A program made the translations under genes and the position numbers. Below the pieces are notes generated by a model, which worked only from the letters and a program-made list of their open reading frames with translations, did no database searches and had not been told where the DNA came from. Source: a virus (lineage: Duplodnaviria > Heunggongvirae > Uroviricota > Caudoviricetes). Taken from it: a stretch of DNA of 12,710 nucleotides. The DNA lies in the IMG/VR virus record IMGVR_UViG_2529292985_000033, one strand, 5' to 3'. Each line of letters begins with the position of its first letter. The stretch's first letter is position 1. Below, in pieces: positions 2,954 to 12,710 of this stretch.

Positions 2954-4810
2954 TTATGATGATGCCGGTGCATTTATCTCCAGCACCAGACTTTCTATCT
3001 CAACGCCATACGCTGCATTTTTGGTAATATCCGTCAGCGTCAGCGCATTCAGCCCCAGTGTCAGACTGTCTTTTATGACCTGGAATGCCGGGCCAGCCAC
3101 ACCATTCAGTTTCGGAGTAACCGTGGCACTGCCGGCGGTGAACACCAGCTCCAGCGTCTGCCAGTCGTTACTGTAATTCCCGAACTCGCCCAACTTTGTG
3201 TTTCCGGCTTTCTTGTGATGCATCAGATTCAGTTTGCCGTCTGTGGTCTGGGTGAAGAACGACATCAGGAACGGGTTACCAGTCCCGGTCATCGCCACGA
3301 CGTCAGGTAACGCTACATCGGTATACAGATAAATTCCCAGACCGAACTGGTTGTTGGTCAGTGCGCCTGACAGTCGAAACTTACAGCTCAGTCTGCCACC
3401 CCGTGTCAGCAGGGAGACTGCGTCATCCACCGGATGCATCAGGGACCAGGTTTTATTGCTCTGCTTGGTAACCTTAAACACACCATCTTCCAGCGCAACA
3501 CTGCCGCCGGTGATGGTCCAGCCCTGCGCAGCAGCCTCTCCGGCTGTCGGCAGCAGGGAGACTGTACGAACGGATGTGTCACCATCAGACGGCCCCGATG
3601 GCGTGTCGCCGCCGGGCGAGGGTTTAATCTCCGGTGCGGTACCGCTGATGAAGGCGCTGGTTCGACCAACTGCGTTCAGAATAGCGGTTGCCAGGCGATC
3701 CGAAATAATGCCCCTGCGCGCCCATGAACTGAAATGTGTCGGACGATTTGACGATACCCAATTACCATTACTACGGGATTGCGCGCCGTAATAACCTGCA
3801 TCAGCAATATCCGGGTCTTCTGCCGGTAAGTTGGTGGGCGTGTTGTTACCGTTACCGTCGGTCATGAACGGCACAAAGAAAACGTTGTCGCTCTCCCTGT
3901 TTTTGTACGCGCCGTAGACGGAGTCATACTGTGTGCCGTATGTGTTTTTCCAGTAATACGTCGTGTCGCCACAAATCCACGGTACAACTGCAGCACTGCC
4001 GCCATGGCACTGCGCGTTAAATCCGGAAAGGTCAGTACGGAACTGCTTCAGCATGGCCGTGAACAGGTCCGGTTGCTGTGCGTAGGTGGCAGCGCTCATG
4101 TCAAATTCGCCCTGCATCCAGCACACCGCCAGCAACACATTTTTCGGGTTCTTCTGTAATGCCGCTTTGGTGCGTGCGATCAGGTCCTGATATAACGGTT
4201 TACCCACACCCCAGCGTGCCGAATCCTGGCTGGCCCCCGTGTCCGCACTGAATGTCCCCTCCGCGCCCTGGGTGAATGCCGAACCACCACGACAGCATGG
4301 TACCAGCAGGATCCCCGCGTTATTCGGGATATACGGAAGCAGTTTTTTGGCAATATGTAAGCCCTGGCCGACACAGCCGTACTGCCCTTTGCTCAGGTCT
4401 GCCTTCGGATGATTCAGTGCGCTCATATCCTGAACATCATGCAGGCAGTGGTCTGCCGGAATGATGTCGTTAAATGCGCATGCTTTACCACCGGGAGTCA
4501 CTGTGTTGCGACGGGCCAGTTGCTTAATACGTGGGTGGGGCGCATCGTAAGAATCCGGAAGCGGAAGCCCTTCACCGTAAGCCATGGCATTGGATTGCCC
4601 GGCCAGTACGATGACGTAGTACCACTCCGGCTCAGTTGCACCACTGACGACCACATCACCTTCTGCTGCAATCGCCTGCATCAGGGTATAAGGGGTTATG
4701 GCCACCGGACTACCAAACGGCTGCCAGCCCTCTTTCAGTTTATGTGTCAGCTTTTCCGCAAGATCTGACGGCGACGCCGCCCTGACAACATCATAGTGTT
4801 TAAATGCCAT
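2954..4810 (-). CDS. nanS-p: Prophage-type sialate O-acetylesterase (NanS-p-like; N-terminal DUF1737-like region plus SASA/SGNH-type esterase domain)
   Basis: Contains the GQSN block (…VLAGQSNAMAYGEG…) typical of sialate O-acetylesterases, at a length (~620 aa) and position matching the nanS-p genes of Stx-type phages. Start placed at MAFKHYDVV (4810), which has a GGTGGAAAG SD-like sequence; the track start at 4825 has none. Confidence 0.75.
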   Translation of the reverse strand: MAFKHYDVVRAASPSDLAEKLTHKLKEGWQPFGSPVAITPYTLMQAIAAEGDVVVSGATEPEWYYVIVLAGQSNAMAYGEGLPLPDSYDAPHPRIKQLARRNTVTPGGKACAFNDIIPADHCLHDVQDMSALNHPKADLSKGQYGCVGQGLHIAKKLLPYIPNNAGILLVPCCRGGSAFTQGAEGTFSADTGASQDSARWGVGKPLYQDLIARTKAALQKNPKNVLLAVCWMQGEFDMSAATYAQQPDLFTAMLKQFRTDLSGFNAQCHGGSAAVVPWICGDTTYYWKNTYGTQYDSVYGAYKNRESDNVFFVPFMTDGNGNNTPTNLPAEDPDIADAGYYGAQSRSNGNWVSSNRPTHFSSWARRGIISDRLATAILNAVGRTSAFISGTAPEIKPSPGGDTPSGPSDGDTSVRTVSLLPTAGEAAAQGWTITGGSVALEDGVFKVTKQSNKTWSLMHPVDDAVSLLTRGGRLSCKFRLSGALTNNQFGLGIYLYTDVALPDVVAMTGTGNPFLMSFFTQTTDGKLNLMHHKKAGNTKLGEFGNYSNDWQTLELVFTAGSATVTPKLNGVAGPAFQVIKDSLTLGLNALTLTDITKNAAYGVEIESLVLEINAPASS

Positions 4811-5069
4811 GGTTCTTTCCACCATCTGAAAAATGATTCTTTAAAATACCTGACATGTAATACAGAAAAAAACAAAACCATACCTTAAATAAAAACCTCA
4901 TCATCAAGCAGATATGCATGGATAAACTACAAGACGAGATATAAACCACCATGCATTTAAATAAACAATAAACAACATCAGAAAAATAATTCTGCTCTAT
5001 GGTTTACAATCAAAAATATCATTTATACTTTTCAGAACATCACCAGCAAGACATAAACAAGGAAACTAA

Positions 5070-6087: not shown

Positions 6088-7146
6088 TCATCCGTTCTGG
6101 CTGACTAAATCCTGTACTTCCCGAACCGTCTGCTCAAAACGTCCGGTCTCCAGCTCAACGCCAATCGCACGACGCCCGAGCGCCAGTGCCGCTTTTACCG
6201 TTGAACCTGAGTCCATAAAAAAATCTGCAACCAGGTCACCCGGACGACTGCTTGCGCTGATTATCTGCTGCAGCATTTCTGCCGGTTTTTCGCACGGATG
6301 TTTCCCGGGATAGAACTGCACCGGTTTATGTGTCCACACATCCGTGTACGGCACCTGCGCCGTCACACCAAAATACCGCCGCAGATGCTTATATTCACTC
6401 TGCAGCTCCACATACTGCCGATTCAGTGACGTATACGTATCCACCAGCTGGTGGTGGGGCTTTTCCAGTTCACCGCGCTGATGTTTCTCTTCTGCCACCC
6501 GGGCAAACAGCGACTGTAATTTCAGATAATCGCTTTCGTTCGGTAGCTGCCACTGACTGGCACTGAACCAGTGCGACACCATGTTTTTCTTTCCTGTGGC
6601 ATCTGCAATCTGTTTTGCCGTTATCCCCAGGGCCGCGCGCGCATCACGAAAGTAAGAAATCAGCGGGGCCATCACATGCTGTTTCAGTGCACTGCCCTTC
6701 GCCGCATACCCGGCATCTTTCGGACGATACGGCCCCTGATAATGTTCCGCGAACAGAATGCGCTCTGTGGCGGGGAAATACGCCCGCAGGCTTTCCTTGT
6801 TGCATCCGTTCCAGCGTCCGGACGGCTTCGCCCAGATAATATGGTTCAGCACACTGAAGCGTTCACGCATCATGATTTCGATATCAGATGCCAGGCGATG
6901 ACCACAGAACAGGTAAAGACTTCCGGCAGGTTTCAGCACCCGCCAGAACTGCGCCAGACACTGGTCCAGCCACTTCAGGTAATCATCGTCGCCCTTCCAC
7001 TGGTTATCCCAGCCCTCAGGCTTCACTTTAAAGTACGGCGGGTCCGTGACTATCAGGTCAACAGAATTTTCGGGTAACGACCAGATAAATTCCAGGCAGT
7101 CGGCGTTGATTAACTCACAACTGGATATTTTTACAGTATTAAGCAT
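6088..7146 (-). CDS. DNA methyltransferase, beta-class amino-MTase (N6-adenine or N4-cytosine), no adjacent restriction gene
   Basis: DPPY catalytic motif near the N-terminus (…DLIVTDPPYF…) and an AdoMet-binding motif near the C-terminus (…DLVADFFMDSGST…). This circular-permutation order is typical of beta-class MTases. Position between Q and the tRNA array matches Stx-type phages. Confidence 0.85.
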   Translation of the reverse strand: MLNTVKISSCELINADCLEFIWSLPENSVDLIVTDPPYFKVKPEGWDNQWKGDDDYLKWLDQCLAQFWRVLKPAGSLYLFCGHRLASDIEIMMRERFSVLNHIIWAKPSGRWNGCNKESLRAYFPATERILFAEHYQGPYRPKDAGYAAKGSALKQHVMAPLISYFRDARAALGITAKQIADATGKKNMVSHWFSASQWQLPNESDYLKLQSLFARVAEEKHQRGELEKPHHQLVDTYTSLNRQYVELQSEYKHLRRYFGVTAQVPYTDVWTHKPVQFYPGKHPCEKPAEMLQQIISASSRPGDLVADFFMDSGSTVKAALALGRRAIGVELETGRFEQTVREVQDLVSQNG

Positions 7147-8925: not shown

Positions 8926-9972
8926 TTACCCAAGCACGCCAGTTGCAAAGGCGTGATCAAGAAAACGAAAAATTAAATCAACCTGAGAACCATGCTTTTC
9001 TTCGAACGCCAGAGGATCCGCATGAAGCTCGTTGTGATGCTCCCGACACAGCGGTAGCGTGAAAATATCGTGAGATTTTGTCCCCATTCCGCCCTGACCA
9101 TGACCAATCAGGTGATGGGGATCGTCGGCTGGCTTACCACAACACGCACACGGCTGTGTCTTCACCCAGCGTGTGTATTTCTCGTTAACCCAGCGGCGAC
9201 GTTTAGGTCGTTTCATGAAAGATTCCGGAGACTCAGGATCAACGGCAATGCTGACCACCGTCTCTTCCTGTGGCGGGTTTTGCTGGTGGGCGTGAGGCAG
9301 CGGCGCAAGATTTTTTGTGCGCTGCTTCAGTATGCTGGTGGCGGTCTGCTCTCCCGGTACGATGTCGCTTTCACGGTACATTGAGCGGATTTTTTCCGCA
9401 CGCAACCCCAGCGAACGACGTAATACCGCTTCCGGTAGCGCGTCCGCCACCTGATTGCGGACCGCCCACCAGGATAATTCAGCCAGCGATAATTCCCGTT
9501 CCTGCGAGCCATTCATTGCATGGCGTATGACGTCAATCATCCATGCAGACAGGTTTTGGTGAGCAAGTTGCCCGAGTGATTCGGAGGTCTGGTCGCGCAG
9601 CTGGTTGTCGCAGTGCCAGCACAACACCATTGCGCCGGTACCATAACGGTGAATGACGGTTTCACTGTGGTGATAATCGCCGTGTGGCCACTGGCAGGAT
9701 TTAACATGGCGCAGTAACCAGTCAGACAATGCGCCAGCGCCACCAGCAGCACGAATCACTCGTTCGTCGCTGAAAGATGGCAGTAATGATTTATCCTCCG
9801 CCAGCGGCTGGCGAACGGCAGGAACGACCCCGGACGGCAGATTACGCATGCTTTTCGGTTCCGGCTCCACCAGTACCCGGGTATTGTGGAATACCGGCAT
9901 GGATTCACGGCCCGGCTTAACGATCACCAGCCCGAGTTCCGGTACCAGAACAGGTCGAAGTAATACCCGCAC
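8926..9972 (-). CDS. YdfU-like prophage protein (348 aa) with C-terminal Cys/His cluster resembling an HNH/zinc-binding motif
   Basis: Length and position (upstream of rusA and Q in the nin-like region) fit the Qin-prophage YdfU family as I recall it. C-terminus has CACCGKP…HHLIGH…CREHHNELH. Confidence 0.6.
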   Translation of the reverse strand: MRVLLRPVLVPELGLVIVKPGRESMPVFHNTRVLVEPEPKSMRNLPSGVVPAVRQPLAEDKSLLPSFSDERVIRAAGGAGALSDWLLRHVKSCQWPHGDYHHSETVIHRYGTGAMVLCWHCDNQLRDQTSESLGQLAHQNLSAWMIDVIRHAMNGSQERELSLAELSWWAVRNQVADALPEAVLRRSLGLRAEKIRSMYRESDIVPGEQTATSILKQRTKNLAPLPHAHQQNPPQEETVVSIAVDPESPESFMKRPKRRRWVNEKYTRWVKTQPCACCGKPADDPHHLIGHGQGGMGTKSHDIFTLPLCREHHNELHADPLAFEEKHGSQVDLIFRFLDHAFATGVLG

Positions 9973-9973
9973 G

Positions 9974-10252
9974 TTATCTCCAGATGCGTTGCTGGTATGT
10001 GCGGGACAGACGCGGTGGGCGTTCGGAGTAAGGAAGCCTGACGGAGATTATCCAGTGACGGTAGTCGAGGCTAAGGGCTTTTTTAACCTCGCATCCGCGC
10101 CTGCGGTAACACTGAATGAGCCATTCGGCCTGTTCTTCAGTGCATGGGGGATGCTGGTACCAGTCTGACTTAAATGCGTGAGAATACCGCTCCTGCGTGT
10201 GGGCAAGAACGGTCGAATTATCATGTTTGTAATATTTTGCGTTGCGTGCCAT
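9974..10252 (-). CDS. Hypothetical prophage protein (92 aa)
   Basis: ORF with a GGAGAA SD about 6 nt upstream of the ATG at 10252, tightly packed against the downstream gene. No family recognised. Confidence 0.55.
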   Translation of the reverse strand: MARNAKYYKHDNSTVLAHTQERYSHAFKSDWYQHPPCTEEQAEWLIQCYRRRGCEVKKALSLDYRHWIISVRLPYSERPPRLSRTYQQRIWR

Positions 10253-10318
10253 CGGTTTTCTCCGGTGGCACGGTGTTACTCAGCGGGAGTTCAGCCCCGC
10301 GCAAGATTGTAGATGAGT

Positions 10319-10570
10319 TTATTCTTCTGAAAAAGCAGAAAAGCCAGCTTTTATTCCGATCTCTTTCAATACCTGTAATGAAGTGACAAACTCACCGTCG
10401 CGCAAGATAAATCCGTCCGTCACTCGGGCATCCACAAAATTAATTAACGCAGCCCCATTTTTTTGCAAACACACAATGCGGTAATGACTAACAATATTTC
10501 CATTTTCAACGCACACAGCATAGAGGCCATCTTCACAAAAAATTTTACGCAGTTCTTCGATGTTCATCAT
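10319..10570 (-). CDS. Hypothetical 83-aa protein; size and position between hokD and the ydfU-like gene match Qin-prophage rem
   Basis: GGAAGGA SD upstream of the ATG at 10570. Assignment rests on gene order and length only; I cannot confirm sequence identity to Rem. Confidence 0.5.
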   Translation of the reverse strand: MMNIEELRKIFCEDGLYAVCVENGNIVSHYRIVCLQKNGAALINFVDARVTDGFILRDGEFVTSLQVLKEIGIKAGFSAFSEE

Positions 10571-10686
10571 CAGAATCCTTCCGGATAATTAGCTCTCCCC
10601 TTTAAGGGACCATCCCTCTTATCCCTGCGCGCTACTTAAGTATTTTTGATTCTATTCCGGCACCGTCCAGAACTTCAAATGCGTTG

Positions 10687-10717
10687 AAAATAAAAACAAA
10701 AACCCGCCGAAGCGGGT
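10687..10717 (-). terminator. Intrinsic terminator at the 3' end of the hok mRNA (stem ACCCGC/GCGGGT, loop CGAA, then U-rich tract)
   Basis: Hairpin at 10702-10717 with a plus-strand A-rich run at 10687-10701. Confidence 0.55.
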
Positions 10718-10722
10718 TAAGT

Positions 10723-10736
10723 GCGGGTGCGTTGAG
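10723..10736 (-). promoter_or_regulatory. hok mRNA 3' fbi-like element, complementary to the predicted mRNA 5' end (11102-11114)
   Basis: Plus strand GCGGGTGCGTTGAG (10723-10736) matches the reverse complement of CTCAAGCACCCGC (11102-11114) except for one bulged base, giving a ~13-bp long-range 5'/3' pairing as in the hok fbi/tac architecture. Confidence 0.5.
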
Positions 10737-10786
10737 AATGCCTGCCACATCAGAGGTGGCGAGGGATTTCTCCCTCGCCGGGTCTC

Positions 10787-10942
10787 TTACTCCTCAGGTT
10801 CGTAAGCTGTGAAGACAGCGACCTCCGTCTGGCCGGTTCGGATTCGTACCTCGCAGAGGTCTTTCCTCGTTACCAGTGCCGTCACAATGACGGTTAAACA
10901 GATGACGATCAGGGCGATTAGCATCGCCTTTTGCTGCTTCAT
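10787..10942 (-). CDS. hokD: HokD (RelF) type I toxin, 51 aa
   Basis: MKQQKAMLIALIVICLTVIVTALVTRKDLCEVRIRTGQTEVAVFTAYEPEE matches HokD as I recall it. The track ORF extends 19 codons upstream in frame to 10999. Confidence 0.9.
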   Translation of the reverse strand: MKQQKAMLIALIVICLTVIVTALVTRKDLCEVRIRTGQTEVAVFTAYEPEE

Positions 10943-11118
10943 AGCCTGCTTCTCCTTGCCTTTCGGCACGTAAGAGGCTAACCTACGTGTGTAGAGCATA
11001 GATATGGCCTCAGATTAATGTTAAGCGTCTTGCCGGACGCGTAATGTTAACTGGGGCTTTTCTCTATCTGCCTTTTGGTGTTCATGCCTGAGACAGATAG
11101 CCTCAAGCACCCGCTGCA

Positions 11119-11146
11119 ATTCTACTTAACTCTCCTTTTCCCGCAA
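11119..11146 (-). promoter_or_regulatory. Candidate hok mRNA promoter (-35 TTGCGG, 16-nt spacer, -10 TAGAAT)
   Basis: Minus strand reads TTGCGGgaaaaggagagttaagTAGAAT. The predicted start near 11112 coincides with the tac-like element and gives a transcript of about 420 nt to the terminator. Confidence 0.45.
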
Positions 11147-11153
11147 ACCGTTT

Positions 11154-11237
11154 TTATCCCCAGCGGCAAATCGAATACACCACCAGCGCCACCGCCATCG
11201 CAATTCCTACCGTTGTTAATGCTTCAGGCCAGGTCAT
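11154..11237 (-). CDS. Candidate 27-aa hydrophobic peptide (MTWPEALTTVGIAMAVALVVYSICRWG)
   Basis: Its ATG overlaps the stop of the upstream 77-aa ORF (ATGA), suggesting translational coupling. It has a single predicted transmembrane-like stretch. It is below the ORF-track size cutoff and was found by manual translation. Confidence 0.3.
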   Translation of the reverse strand: MTWPEALTTVGIAMAVALVVYSICRWG

Positions 11238-11467
11238 CGTAAAATATCCTCCACGCTTATCAGTCCGTTCCGCTCCAGATAACTCATCGCCTTATCCGGT
11301 AATTTGCAGTCTGGCTTCGCTTTCCTCAGTTGCCAGGTTAACTGCTTTACCAGCATGGTTAACTCATCGACCAGACGCTGATATCCCACTGGTTTGTATT
11401 CATGCAATTTACCGGCTGGCTCTGCTGCCAGCGATACCAGTGCGATTTCCAGAACAGCAATATCCAT
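11234..11467 (-). CDS. Hypothetical 77-aa ORF (MDIAVLEIALVSLAAEPAGKLHEYK…ISVEDILR), possibly the 3' part of a gene interrupted by IS2
   Basis: The ATG at 11465-11467 lies 3 bp from the IS2 end with no SD. The track ORF starts 10 codons further upstream, inside IS2. No family recognised. Confidence 0.45.
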   Translation of the reverse strand: MDIAVLEIALVSLAAEPAGKLHEYKPVGYQRLVDELTMLVKQLTWQLRKAKPDCKLPDKAMSYLERNGLISVEDILR

Positions 11468-11481
11468 CTTTGGATTTGCCC

Positions 11482-12387
11482 CTATATTTCCAGACATCTG
11501 TTATCACTTAACCCATTACAAGCCCGCTGCCGCAGATATTCCCGTGGCGAGCGATAACCCAGCGCACTATGCGGATGCCATTCGTTATAATGCTCGAACG
11601 CCTCTGCAAGGTTCTTTGCTGCCGTTAACCCGTCTGGTTTGGGCATGATACTGATGTAGTCACGCTTTATCGTTTTCACGAAGCTCTCTGCTATTCCGTT
11701 ACTCTCCGGACTCCGCACCGCCGTGTTCTTCGGTTCAAGTCCCAACATCCGGGCGAACTGGCGTGTTTCATTAGCCCGGTAGCATGAACCATTATCCGTC
11801 AGCCACTCCACTGGAGACGACGGAAGATCGTTGCCGAAGCGGCGTTCCACCGCTCCCAGCATGACGTCCTGTACTGTTTCACTGTTGAAGCCGCCGGTAG
11901 TCACCGCCCAGTGCAGTGCCTCACGATCACAGCAGTCCAGCGCGAACGTGACACGCAGTCTCTCTCCGTTATCACAGCAGAACTCGAACCCGTCAGAGCA
12001 CCATCGCTGATTGCTTTCTTTCACGGCCACTCTGCCTGTATGTGCCCGTTTCGATGGTGGTACAGCAGGTTTTCGCTCAAGCAACAGCGCATTCTGGCGC
12101 ATGATCCGGTAAACACGTTTGGCATTGATCGCAGGCATACCATCAAGTTCTGCCTGTCTGCGAAGCAGCGCCCATACCCGACGATAACCATACGTGGGCA
12201 GCTCTCCGATAACATGGTGTATACGGAGAAGCACATCCGTATCATCAGTGTGACGACTGCGGCGGCCATCCATCCAGTCATCGGTTCGTCTGAGAATGAC
12301 GTGCAACTGCGCACGCGACACCCGGAGACAACGGCTGACTAAGCTTACTCCCCATCCCCGGGCAATAAGGGCGCGTGCGCTATCCAC
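11482..12387 (-). CDS. insD: IS2 transposase OrfB (InsD), copy 2 (E to G substitution relative to copy 1)
   Basis: 301-aa ORF identical to copy 1 except PKPDELT to PKPDGLT. Confidence 0.9.
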
Positions 12388-12710
12388 TTTTTTGCCCGTC
12401 CATATTCAACGGCTTCTTTGAGGAGTTCATTTTCCATCGTTTTCTTGCCGAGCAGGCGCTGGAGTTCTTTAATCTGCTTCATGGCGGCAGCAAGTTCAGA
12501 GGCAGGAACAACCTGTTCTCCGGCGGCCACAGCAGTAAGACTTCCTTCCTGGTATTGCTTACGCCAGAGAAATAACTGGCTGGCTGCTACACCATGTTGC
12601 CGGGCAACGAGGGAGACCGTCATCCCCGGTTCAAAGCTCTGCTGAACAATTGCGATCTTTTCCTGTGTGGTACGCCGTCTGCGTTTCTCCGGCCCTAAGA
12701 CATCAATCAT
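12345..12710 (-). CDS. insC: IS2 OrfA (InsC), copy 2; start codon is the last codon of the window
   Basis: 121-aa ORF identical to copy 1 InsC. Confidence 0.9.

Follow-up and report, generated by a model that had tools for sequence, protein, structure and literature searches.

Bacterial single-pass membrane microproteins include KdpF, CydX, AcrZ, MgtS and PmrR, and such proteins of fewer than 50 residues act by helix-helix packing with membrane proteins (PMC12648545). Lambdoid phages carry, in the exo-xis or 'ea' region, mosaic accessory genes that are labelled Ead/Ea22-like, EaA or DUF551 (PMC7093339, PMC10834534). Here we describe a locus at positions 11,154 to 11,481 of a 12,710-nucleotide (nt) stretch of DNA from a virus of the Caudoviricetes (IMG/VR record IMGVR_UViG_2529292985_000033; the whole stretch is called the window below), in which a 77-codon and a 27-codon open reading frame (ORF) overlap next to a hok/sok cassette. 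Comparison of sequences across related loci identified the 27-codon ORF as an intact, autonomous gene with its own Shine-Dalgarno sequence (SD), with a start that overlaps the preceding stop, and usually as the last cistron before a terminator or hok/sok. The 77-codon ORF was identified by the same comparison as a pseudogene fragment, the 3'-terminal 77 codons of an accessory gene that spans 114 codons; both pieces belong to a decayed Qin-like lambdoid prophage. We are highly confident of these identities of the two pieces, and consider the explanation as a whole, in which the identities weigh more than the mode of action, to be probable.

The 27-amino-acid (aa) peptide resembles the class of KdpF, CydX, AcrZ, MgtS and PmrR in having fewer than 50 residues, one predicted hydrophobic helix and a small-xxx-small core, and in being of a kind often missed by annotation. 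It differs from that class in lacking significant sequence similarity to its members and in being phage-borne, encoded at the 3' end of an operon of early phage genes, with no known partner. Type I toxins (Hok/Gef, TisB, DinQ, Ibs) are likewise short and hydrophobic, TisB, DinQ and Ibs being of comparable size and hydrophobicity, and the peptide gene adjoins a hok/sok cassette; unlike type I toxin genes, it lacks both an antisense RNA and a dedicated promoter, is translationally coupled with a strong SD, and has no hok beside it at nearly half of its loci. The locus as a whole is comparable to relBE-hokD in the Qin prophage of Escherichia coli K-12, with which it shares the slot immediately upstream of hokD and the ydfU-rem-hokD backbone (window 8926-10956, 89.5% identity). 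However, hok in the window keeps the mok/sok leader and promoter that K-12 hokD lacks, and its upstream neighbors show no similarity to RelB or RelE. As far as its sequence indicates, the peptide is an uncharacterised prophage-borne small membrane protein and not a member of any known family.

Layout and conservation of the 27-codon ORF

Both ORFs and all features of the pair, including the overlap, were found by the ORF listing on the minus strand, at the coordinates that a preliminary description made from the letters of the window had given. The 27-codon ORF (11154-11237, minus strand) encodes MTWPEALTTVGIAMAVALVVYSICRWG and ends with the stop TAA at 11156-11154, and its start shares the ATGA at 11237-11234 with the TGA stop (11236-11234) of the 77-codon ORF (11234-11467, minus strand; ATG at 11467-11465). 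An SD, GGAGG, can be read at 11248-11252 (minus strand) inside the final codons of the upstream ORF, 10 nt from the ATG of the 27-codon ORF.

IMG/VR was scanned with a degenerate DNA pattern encoding MTWPEA, followed by 46-58 nt and then CRW, with neither a frame nor a stop demanded in between. The matches, together with other loci, gave a sample of 126 instances in 51 distinct DNA versions, in which frame, start and stop were compared. The ORF was exactly 27 codons long in 123 of the 126 instances; one of the others had lost two codons in frame, and two had lost the stop and carried C-terminal extensions. The start overlapped the upstream ORF in ATGA in 125 of the 126. All three stop codons (TAA, TGA and TAG) were used at the same position, the homology ended exactly at the stop codon, and GGAGG or a near variant preceded the ATG behind all three of the unrelated upstream gene ends described below. 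A lone open frame of 27 codons is not unusual, yet the recurrence of the same frame, start and stop across 51 DNA versions takes these features beyond chance.

Substitutions followed the codon structure of the ORF. In the 17 codons outside those fixed by the pattern, minor alleles numbered 38, 34 and 97 at the first, second and third codon positions (chi-square p 2.6e-10). The ratio of nonsynonymous to synonymous polymorphism (pN/pS) was 0.40 in the frame of the ORF versus 0.93 and 1.26 in the other two sense frames, and the amino-acid replacements were conservative (V/I/L/A/T). The conserved start, SD and stop, the purifying selection and the one predicted span would place the ORF among the bacterial small membrane proteins, which form a class by function and not by homology, in a sample that was ascertained by pattern and that carries a mirror signal on the antisense strand. 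On these data, the 27-codon ORF is very probably a real gene.

The peptide sequence is widespread in coliphages and their hosts. A tblastn search with the 27-aa peptide, a step proposed in the preliminary description, found it in 95 phage records at 60-96% amino-acid identity, including Shiga toxin 2 (Stx2) phages (Min27, the PA series and ArgO145) and several temperate E. coli phages; two Salmonella phage records appeared in the organism breakdown. Among 5426 complete E. coli genomes, an 87-nt DNA query detected 1829 copies, which were spread over 1325 genomes (about a quarter), with up to five in a single genome. RefSeq annotated no gene over the ORF at the four loci inspected, and a few submissions label the peptide 'prophage protein'. 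When one genome per species was scanned, in-frame matches were found in E. coli, Shigella flexneri and one Xanthomonas contig. No homologue of the peptide was present in the K-12 Qin prophage, lambda, N15, ST64B, H19J, FSL SP-016 or Rac 442/2.

Two side observations concern this distribution. The Xanthomonas match lies on a 431-nt contig of Xanthomonas pisi DSM 18956 (L127) that is 92.7% identical to the E. coli region of the hok leader and peptide ORF, and the contig is most likely a contamination of that assembly. A protein collection clustered at 90% identity groups the 27-aa peptide with 185-aa DUF551 proteins that lack the peptide sequence, which looks like a clustering artefact; those DUF551 proteins are encoded by the gene that precedes the peptide ORF at many loci.

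Interruption of the upstream gene by IS2

The insertion sequence IS2 occupies 11471-12710 of the window (minus strand); it is entered from the end downstream of insD and is cut by the window end. Its terminal repeat TGGATTTGCCCC starts at 11471, the ORF listing gives its frames as insD (11482-12387) and insC (12345-12710), both on the minus strand, and 11471-12176 is 99.7% identical over 706 nt to the K-12 copy IS2E. The terminal repeat, the two frames and the near-identity to the reference copy assign the element to IS2 of the IS3 family.

Intact loci without IS2 were recovered from E. coli KMi006 (L001) and E7476 (L002), in each of which a 345-nt gene encodes WP_000206826.1, a 114-aa 'hypothetical protein'. 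In the alignment with both loci, the window is identical from AAG-ATG-GAT on, and IS2 sequence lies upstream of that point. This places IS2 between codons Y36 and K37 of the 114-aa gene, so that K37 (11470-11468) is the last native codon, the 77-aa ORF begins at the internal Met38, and the remnant corresponds to codons 38-114. A mechanical ORF call gives the frame 87 aa (ATG at 11497; 11234-11497, minus strand), an IS2-gene hybrid, because the frame remains open over 10 codons within IS2; its in-frame extension covers 11468-11497 (minus strand). Neither the ATG of the hybrid nor that of Met38 is preceded by a good SD. The 5' 108 nt missing from the gene were searched for and were not found elsewhere in the window.

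The truncation by IS2 that the preliminary description had suspected was thereby confirmed, and its proposal to recover the uninterrupted locus from related genomes yielded the two intact alleles. It had also named two findings that would count against a distinct two-gene system. The one, that the 77-aa ORF represents the C-terminal end of a known larger nin-region protein, proved correct as regards the larger protein, which is a 114-aa member of PHROG 660 without known function; the other, that the 27-aa frame is not conserved in homologous loci, did not, since the same frame, start and stop were found in 51 DNA versions.

The exact 77-aa sequence is present on at least 1000 public contigs and belongs to the same 90% cluster as the 114-aa form. 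The exact junction of IS2 and gene was found in none of the 5426 complete E. coli genomes. Three genomes (H118-H120), among them NCTC86 (NZ_LR217818.1 2571384-2571590), aligned across the whole junction query at 84.5% with extra bases; the features at these matches are annotated 'hypothetical protein' and 'IS3 family transposase', and a related insertion sequence may lie beside the same gene there. The promoter scan detected no hybrid promoter at the junction. The insertion took away helix 1 and half of helix 2 of the predicted N-terminal hairpin of the protein described below, and cut the gene off from its native upstream operon. With the native promoter of the 27-codon gene gone from the window, its expression there would depend entirely on read-through from the transposase genes of IS2, and this copy of the peptide gene is probably silent.

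The 114-aa protein and its family

The 114-aa protein matched PHROG 660, a family without known function, in two stretches (E 8.2e-43, 147.6 bits). It matched no Pfam family at E up to 1 and no NCBIfam or PADLOC model. All of its relatives are hypothetical prophage proteins of Escherichia, Shigella and Salmonella. The family is modular, with an N-terminal module ending in ..IALASLEAEP, a variable middle and a near-invariant C-terminal module of about 45 residues (ELTMLVKQL..KLPDKAM.YL.RNGLISVEDILR). The protein shares its N-terminal and C-terminal modules, as well as the accessory regions in which it occurs, with the Ead/Ea22/EaA/DUF551 set; unlike that set, neither it nor its 26 relatives had a Pfam match, the 27 aligned proteins giving none at E up to 0.01 with the Ead/Ea22-like and DUF551 profiles included, and lambda Ea22 aligned with the 114-aa protein at E 0.45 by BLASTP.

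An AlphaFold2 model of the 114-aa protein was all-helical, with a mean predicted local distance difference test score (pLDDT) of 77. It comprised a helical hairpin at residues 6-51 (pLDDT about 90), inside the second helix of which the IS2 cut falls, followed by a linker and C-terminal helices. Foldseek searches with the model against PDB and BFVD returned nothing at E of 0.001 or below, only generic helical hairpins, and a PDB sequence search returned nothing below E 0.4.

At the intact locus of KMi006, a 55-aa gene (L001 6883-7050, minus strand) lies just upstream of the 114-aa gene and shares its N-terminal module (MTTITKERIE..IALASLEAEP). The 55-aa gene matches phrog_3323, phrog_60 and phrog_660. 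Neighboring accessory genes draw on a common set of shuffled modules.

Gene neighborhoods of the two ORFs

The genes upstream of the 27-codon ORF fall into unrelated classes. At 84 loci the upstream gene ends in ..NGLISVEDILR, the type present in the window; at 35 loci it is of DUF551 type and ends in ..HWMPLPEPPQEVNQ (..PEPPQEVNQ); at 11 loci it encodes a coiled-coil protein ending in ..NDLKNIEQEVNR (..NIEQEVNR); and other ends were found as single cases. The DUF551, coiled-coil and one other upstream gene, although unrelated, all end in ..(E)VNQ/R or ..MNQ (IMG/VR loci L006-L125; phage loci L004 and L005). They converge on this end because the small ORF brings its SD and spacer, CAGGAGGTGAATCAATG, along with it. 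These last 15-17 nt are thus the small ORF's own SD and spacer, and the recombination joint lies upstream of the SD.

Downstream of the ORF, the hok promoter was present in 65 of the 120 loci with enough sequence, and many other sequences were found in the rest. A terminator-like hairpin followed in 41 of 54 loci without hok, starting no more than about 65 nt after the stop in each listed example. The upstream and downstream classes were found in many combinations. Phage ArgO145 carries the 114-aa gene together with the peptide ORF in its early-left accessory region; a convergent toxin-antitoxin (TA) pair lies beside them, and hok is absent.

The C-terminal module of the 114-aa protein likewise has other partners. 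It is ATGA-coupled to N15 gp45.1 (18 aa), ST64B sb31 (277 aa), H19J orf588 and an Eaa1-like gene of FSL SP-016, and it occurs without the peptide in these four and in Rac 442/2. The module that N15 gp45 has in common with the 114-aa protein is 71% identical over 45 aa, and the gp45 stop codon shares an ATGA with the start of the annotated micro-ORF gp45.1 (L003 2635-2691 region); unlike the peptide, gp45.1 is an unrelated, hydrophilic 18-aa product, MITTRKCMPAAAVSQETK. The same junction is therefore used by a different micro-ORF.

Several upstream partners of the peptide and several downstream partners of the module indicate independently shuffling modules and not an obligate pair. Judged by these arrangements, the two ORFs can move together, yet neither gene needs the other, which is the usual gene-boundary mosaicism of lambdoid accessory regions. 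The suggestion in the preliminary description that the coupled genes could form a distinct toxin-antitoxin or small membrane peptide system is not supported here: the peptide has at least three unrelated upstream partners, and the module has at least four other downstream partners.

The hok/sok cassette and the relBE slot of K-12

The mok frame of 70 aa (10787-10999, minus strand) contains hok (51 aa, ATG at 10942) and is identical to the HokD-annotated WP_000813254.1 locus of KMi006. The hok mRNA leader and sok antisense region (10937-11112, minus strand) matched Rfam RF01794 at 117.1 bits (E 8.5e-28; gathering score 59). The Hok coding sequence inside the mok frame and this leader match identify a hok/sok locus. 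The putative hok promoter (11119-11147, minus strand) comprises a -35-like box TTTGCG at 11147-11142, which starts 6 nt beyond the stop of the small ORF, a 17-nt spacer and a -10 box TAGAAT at 11124-11119. The conserved 5' end of the hok mRNA, GGGTGCTTGAGG, lies 3' of these boxes, at 11112. A simple promoter scan did not call the promoter because its -35 box matches at only three of six positions.

The terminator/promoter scan found a terminator-like hairpin 3' of hok at 10701-10718 (minus strand). A sub-threshold Rfam match to isrK (window 10697-10778, minus strand; 26.6 bits, gathering score 50) spans the 3' end of hok and the hairpin, and is probably the terminator.

The homology to K-12 breaks off 14 nt before the start codon of hok, at the point where relE-relB are found in K-12, in agreement with the earlier placement of the pair in the relBE slot directly upstream of the hok promoter. 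That neither protein resembles RelB or RelE was also upheld. In BLASTP the 114-aa protein aligned with K-12 RelB at E 4.7 and gave no alignment with RelE, and the peptide had no RelE-like match in Pfam or NCBIfam, which argues against membership of the pair in the RelBE type II systems.

Predicted properties and action of the peptide

The peptide had a grand average of hydropathy (GRAVY) of 1.13, and its best 18-residue Kyte-Doolittle window scored 2.18. A single membrane-spanning helix is predicted, with a computed span and a presumed topology; the "transmembrane-like" reading of the preliminary description therefore stands, as a conserved frame with one hydrophobic span. W3 flanks the span at one end, and Y21 and W26 at the other. 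The core contains the small-xxx-small motifs G11xxxA15 and A13xxxA17, and the only basic residue is near the C-terminus. Scans of Pfam, NCBIfam, PHROG and PADLOC gave sub-threshold matches only; those to DUF883_C (E 0.029), KdpF TIGR02115 (E 0.12) and phrog_4612 (0.011) were rejected as evidence of membership. A lipoprotein or signal-peptide reading was also rejected, as the peptide has no lipobox (L-[AS]-[GA]-C), with Y-S-I preceding Cys24 and only three residues following it.

The ORF is oriented with the early genes. Where its operon is intact, it would be translated from delayed-early phage transcripts, both by re-initiation and independently, and the peptide would insert as a single helix in the inner membrane, where its small-xxx-small face could pack against a host or phage membrane protein. 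This helix-packing, partner-binding mode is drawn by analogy with the microproteins described above, and we offer it as a tentative proposal whose chances are somewhat short of even.

Alternative explanations

The reading of the two ORFs as a dedicated two-gene system, either a TA pair or a peptide with a cognate partner in which the helical upstream protein neutralises or regulates the membrane peptide, is very unlikely. The ATGA coupling and shared orientation would fit it, as would the finding that about 65% of the sampled peptide ORFs follow the ..NGLISVEDILR module and that the pair recurs at different genomic positions in ArgO145 and in E. coli prophages. It is largely refuted by the combinatorial contexts, in which the peptide ORF follows a DUF551-type gene, a coiled-coil gene or neither, and the C-terminal module occurs in five phages or prophages that lack the peptide; moreover, neither protein has similarity to RelB or RelE, a PADLOC match or a Pfam TA domain. 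That the beheaded allele is widespread (at least 1000 contigs) while its peptide ORF is intact is a weak argument, because IS2 also removed the promoter. Rather less improbable, though still unlikely, is a stand-alone membrane-damaging effector, that is, a type I toxin-like or holin-like depolariser that shuts down or kills the host during lytic growth, possibly together with Hok. Its size and hydrophobicity (27 aa, GRAVY 1.13) are in the range of type I toxins, the hok promoter follows the stop immediately at more than half of the loci, and the peptide would be made only from early lytic transcripts, where toxicity is tolerable. But no antisense promoter or RNA family was found over the ORF, with no plus-strand promoter-like site over 11100-11300, and the exposed strong SD and the coupling to the preceding gene are unlike type I toxin genes, which, as in hok/sok, carry a long structured leader. 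The peptide also matched neither Hok/Gef (none in Pfam or NCBIfam at E up to 1) nor any toxin family, and it has one basic residue with no amphipathic or charged tail. A further idea, that the ORF defines an uncharacterised family of single-pass membrane microproteins that are borne by phages and have a specific membrane target, and that may work with or modulate Hok in the inner membrane, draws on the observation that the stop lies 6 nt ahead of a hok promoter in more than half of the copies; we regard it as quite improbable, more so than the effector.

Two other explanations would deny the gene itself. If the 84 conserved bases were a cis element, whether as upstream promoter DNA of hok, as a structured RNA or as a recombination joint, the ORF need be no more than a chance open frame; chance may well leave 27 codons open, the hok promoter directly adjoins the sequence at many loci, and RefSeq leaves the ORF unannotated where inspected. 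Against this, the variation falls on third positions with conservative amino-acid changes, the homology ends exactly at the stop codon, and start, SD and stop are kept in contexts wholly without hok. The RNA-element form was rejected because the RNA over the ORF folds no better than shuffled sequences (z = 0.48), and no Rfam family matched over the ORF, the sole Rfam match being sok of the neighboring hok. There is only a slight chance that a cis element accounts for the conservation. Slighter still, to the point of being negligible, is the chance that the true coding frame is an antisense one of the plus strand, such as a 55-aa ORF (11075-11242). One antisense frame has a pN/pS of 0.31, as low as the sense frame, and is open through codons 7-23 in 50 of 51 versions. 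This frame shares its wobble positions with the sense frame, however, so that the low ratio is an expected mirror effect. Its stop-to-stop limits vary with the flanking context, beginning at -128 to +4 nt and ending at +22 to +298 nt, with no conserved start, and the antisense-gene reading was rejected since boundaries that change with every context are not those of a gene. The product would be proline- and serine-rich and of low complexity, and the frame runs against all neighboring genes.

Several points also weigh against our preferred reading of the 27-codon ORF as an autonomous microprotein gene with a membrane partner. The search pattern fixes MTWPEA and CRW, and the conservation of those residues is thus partly ascertainment. 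Because of the low antisense ratio, the strand is not settled by the substitution test on its own. In taxonomic range the family is narrow, with strict in-frame matches only in Escherichia and Shigella plus the stray contig in the Xanthomonas assembly; being young and narrow, it could owe much of its similarity to recent common descent, and the argument from conservation weighs correspondingly less. The ORF is linked to hok at 55-60%, and the two may be connected in function. Neither the searchable literature nor the supplements of two ribosome-profiling studies of enterohaemorrhagic E. coli (EHEC) contained the peptide sequence.

Other features of the window

A second, complete IS2 lies at 1568-2898 (1331 bp), in the same orientation as the IS2 at 11471. 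Its flanks are CCATG and CCCAC, with no 5-bp target duplication, which points to a rearrangement mediated by an insertion sequence. Adjoining it are an IS1 transposase fragment (982-1485) and the truncated gene of an aldehyde dehydrogenase (1-1047). The prophage remnant includes a NanS-like esterase gene (DUF1737 + SASA + DUF6645) and a DNA methylase gene, at 2954-4825 and 6088-7146 (both minus strand), alongside genes for a Q antiterminator, RusA, DUF968 and Rem, a late-regulatory region like that of Qin and Stx phages.

Significance

For the window itself, the outcome is mostly deflationary: the 77-aa protein is a pseudogene fragment made by IS2, there is no new toxin-antitoxin system, and the remainder of the finding is ordinary, an IS2-truncated gene beside a standard hok/sok locus. 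The locus shows how mosaicism can delimit a tiny gene, with SD, start and stop travelling as a module between unrelated neighbors. If it is made, the peptide would be one more overlooked and very common microprotein, carried also by Shiga-toxin phages and belonging to no Pfam or NCBIfam family. Small membrane proteins usually bind larger membrane proteins, so that a peptide of this kind in the early lytic program of a phage could be a clue to a function of the host membrane with which lambdoid phages interfere.

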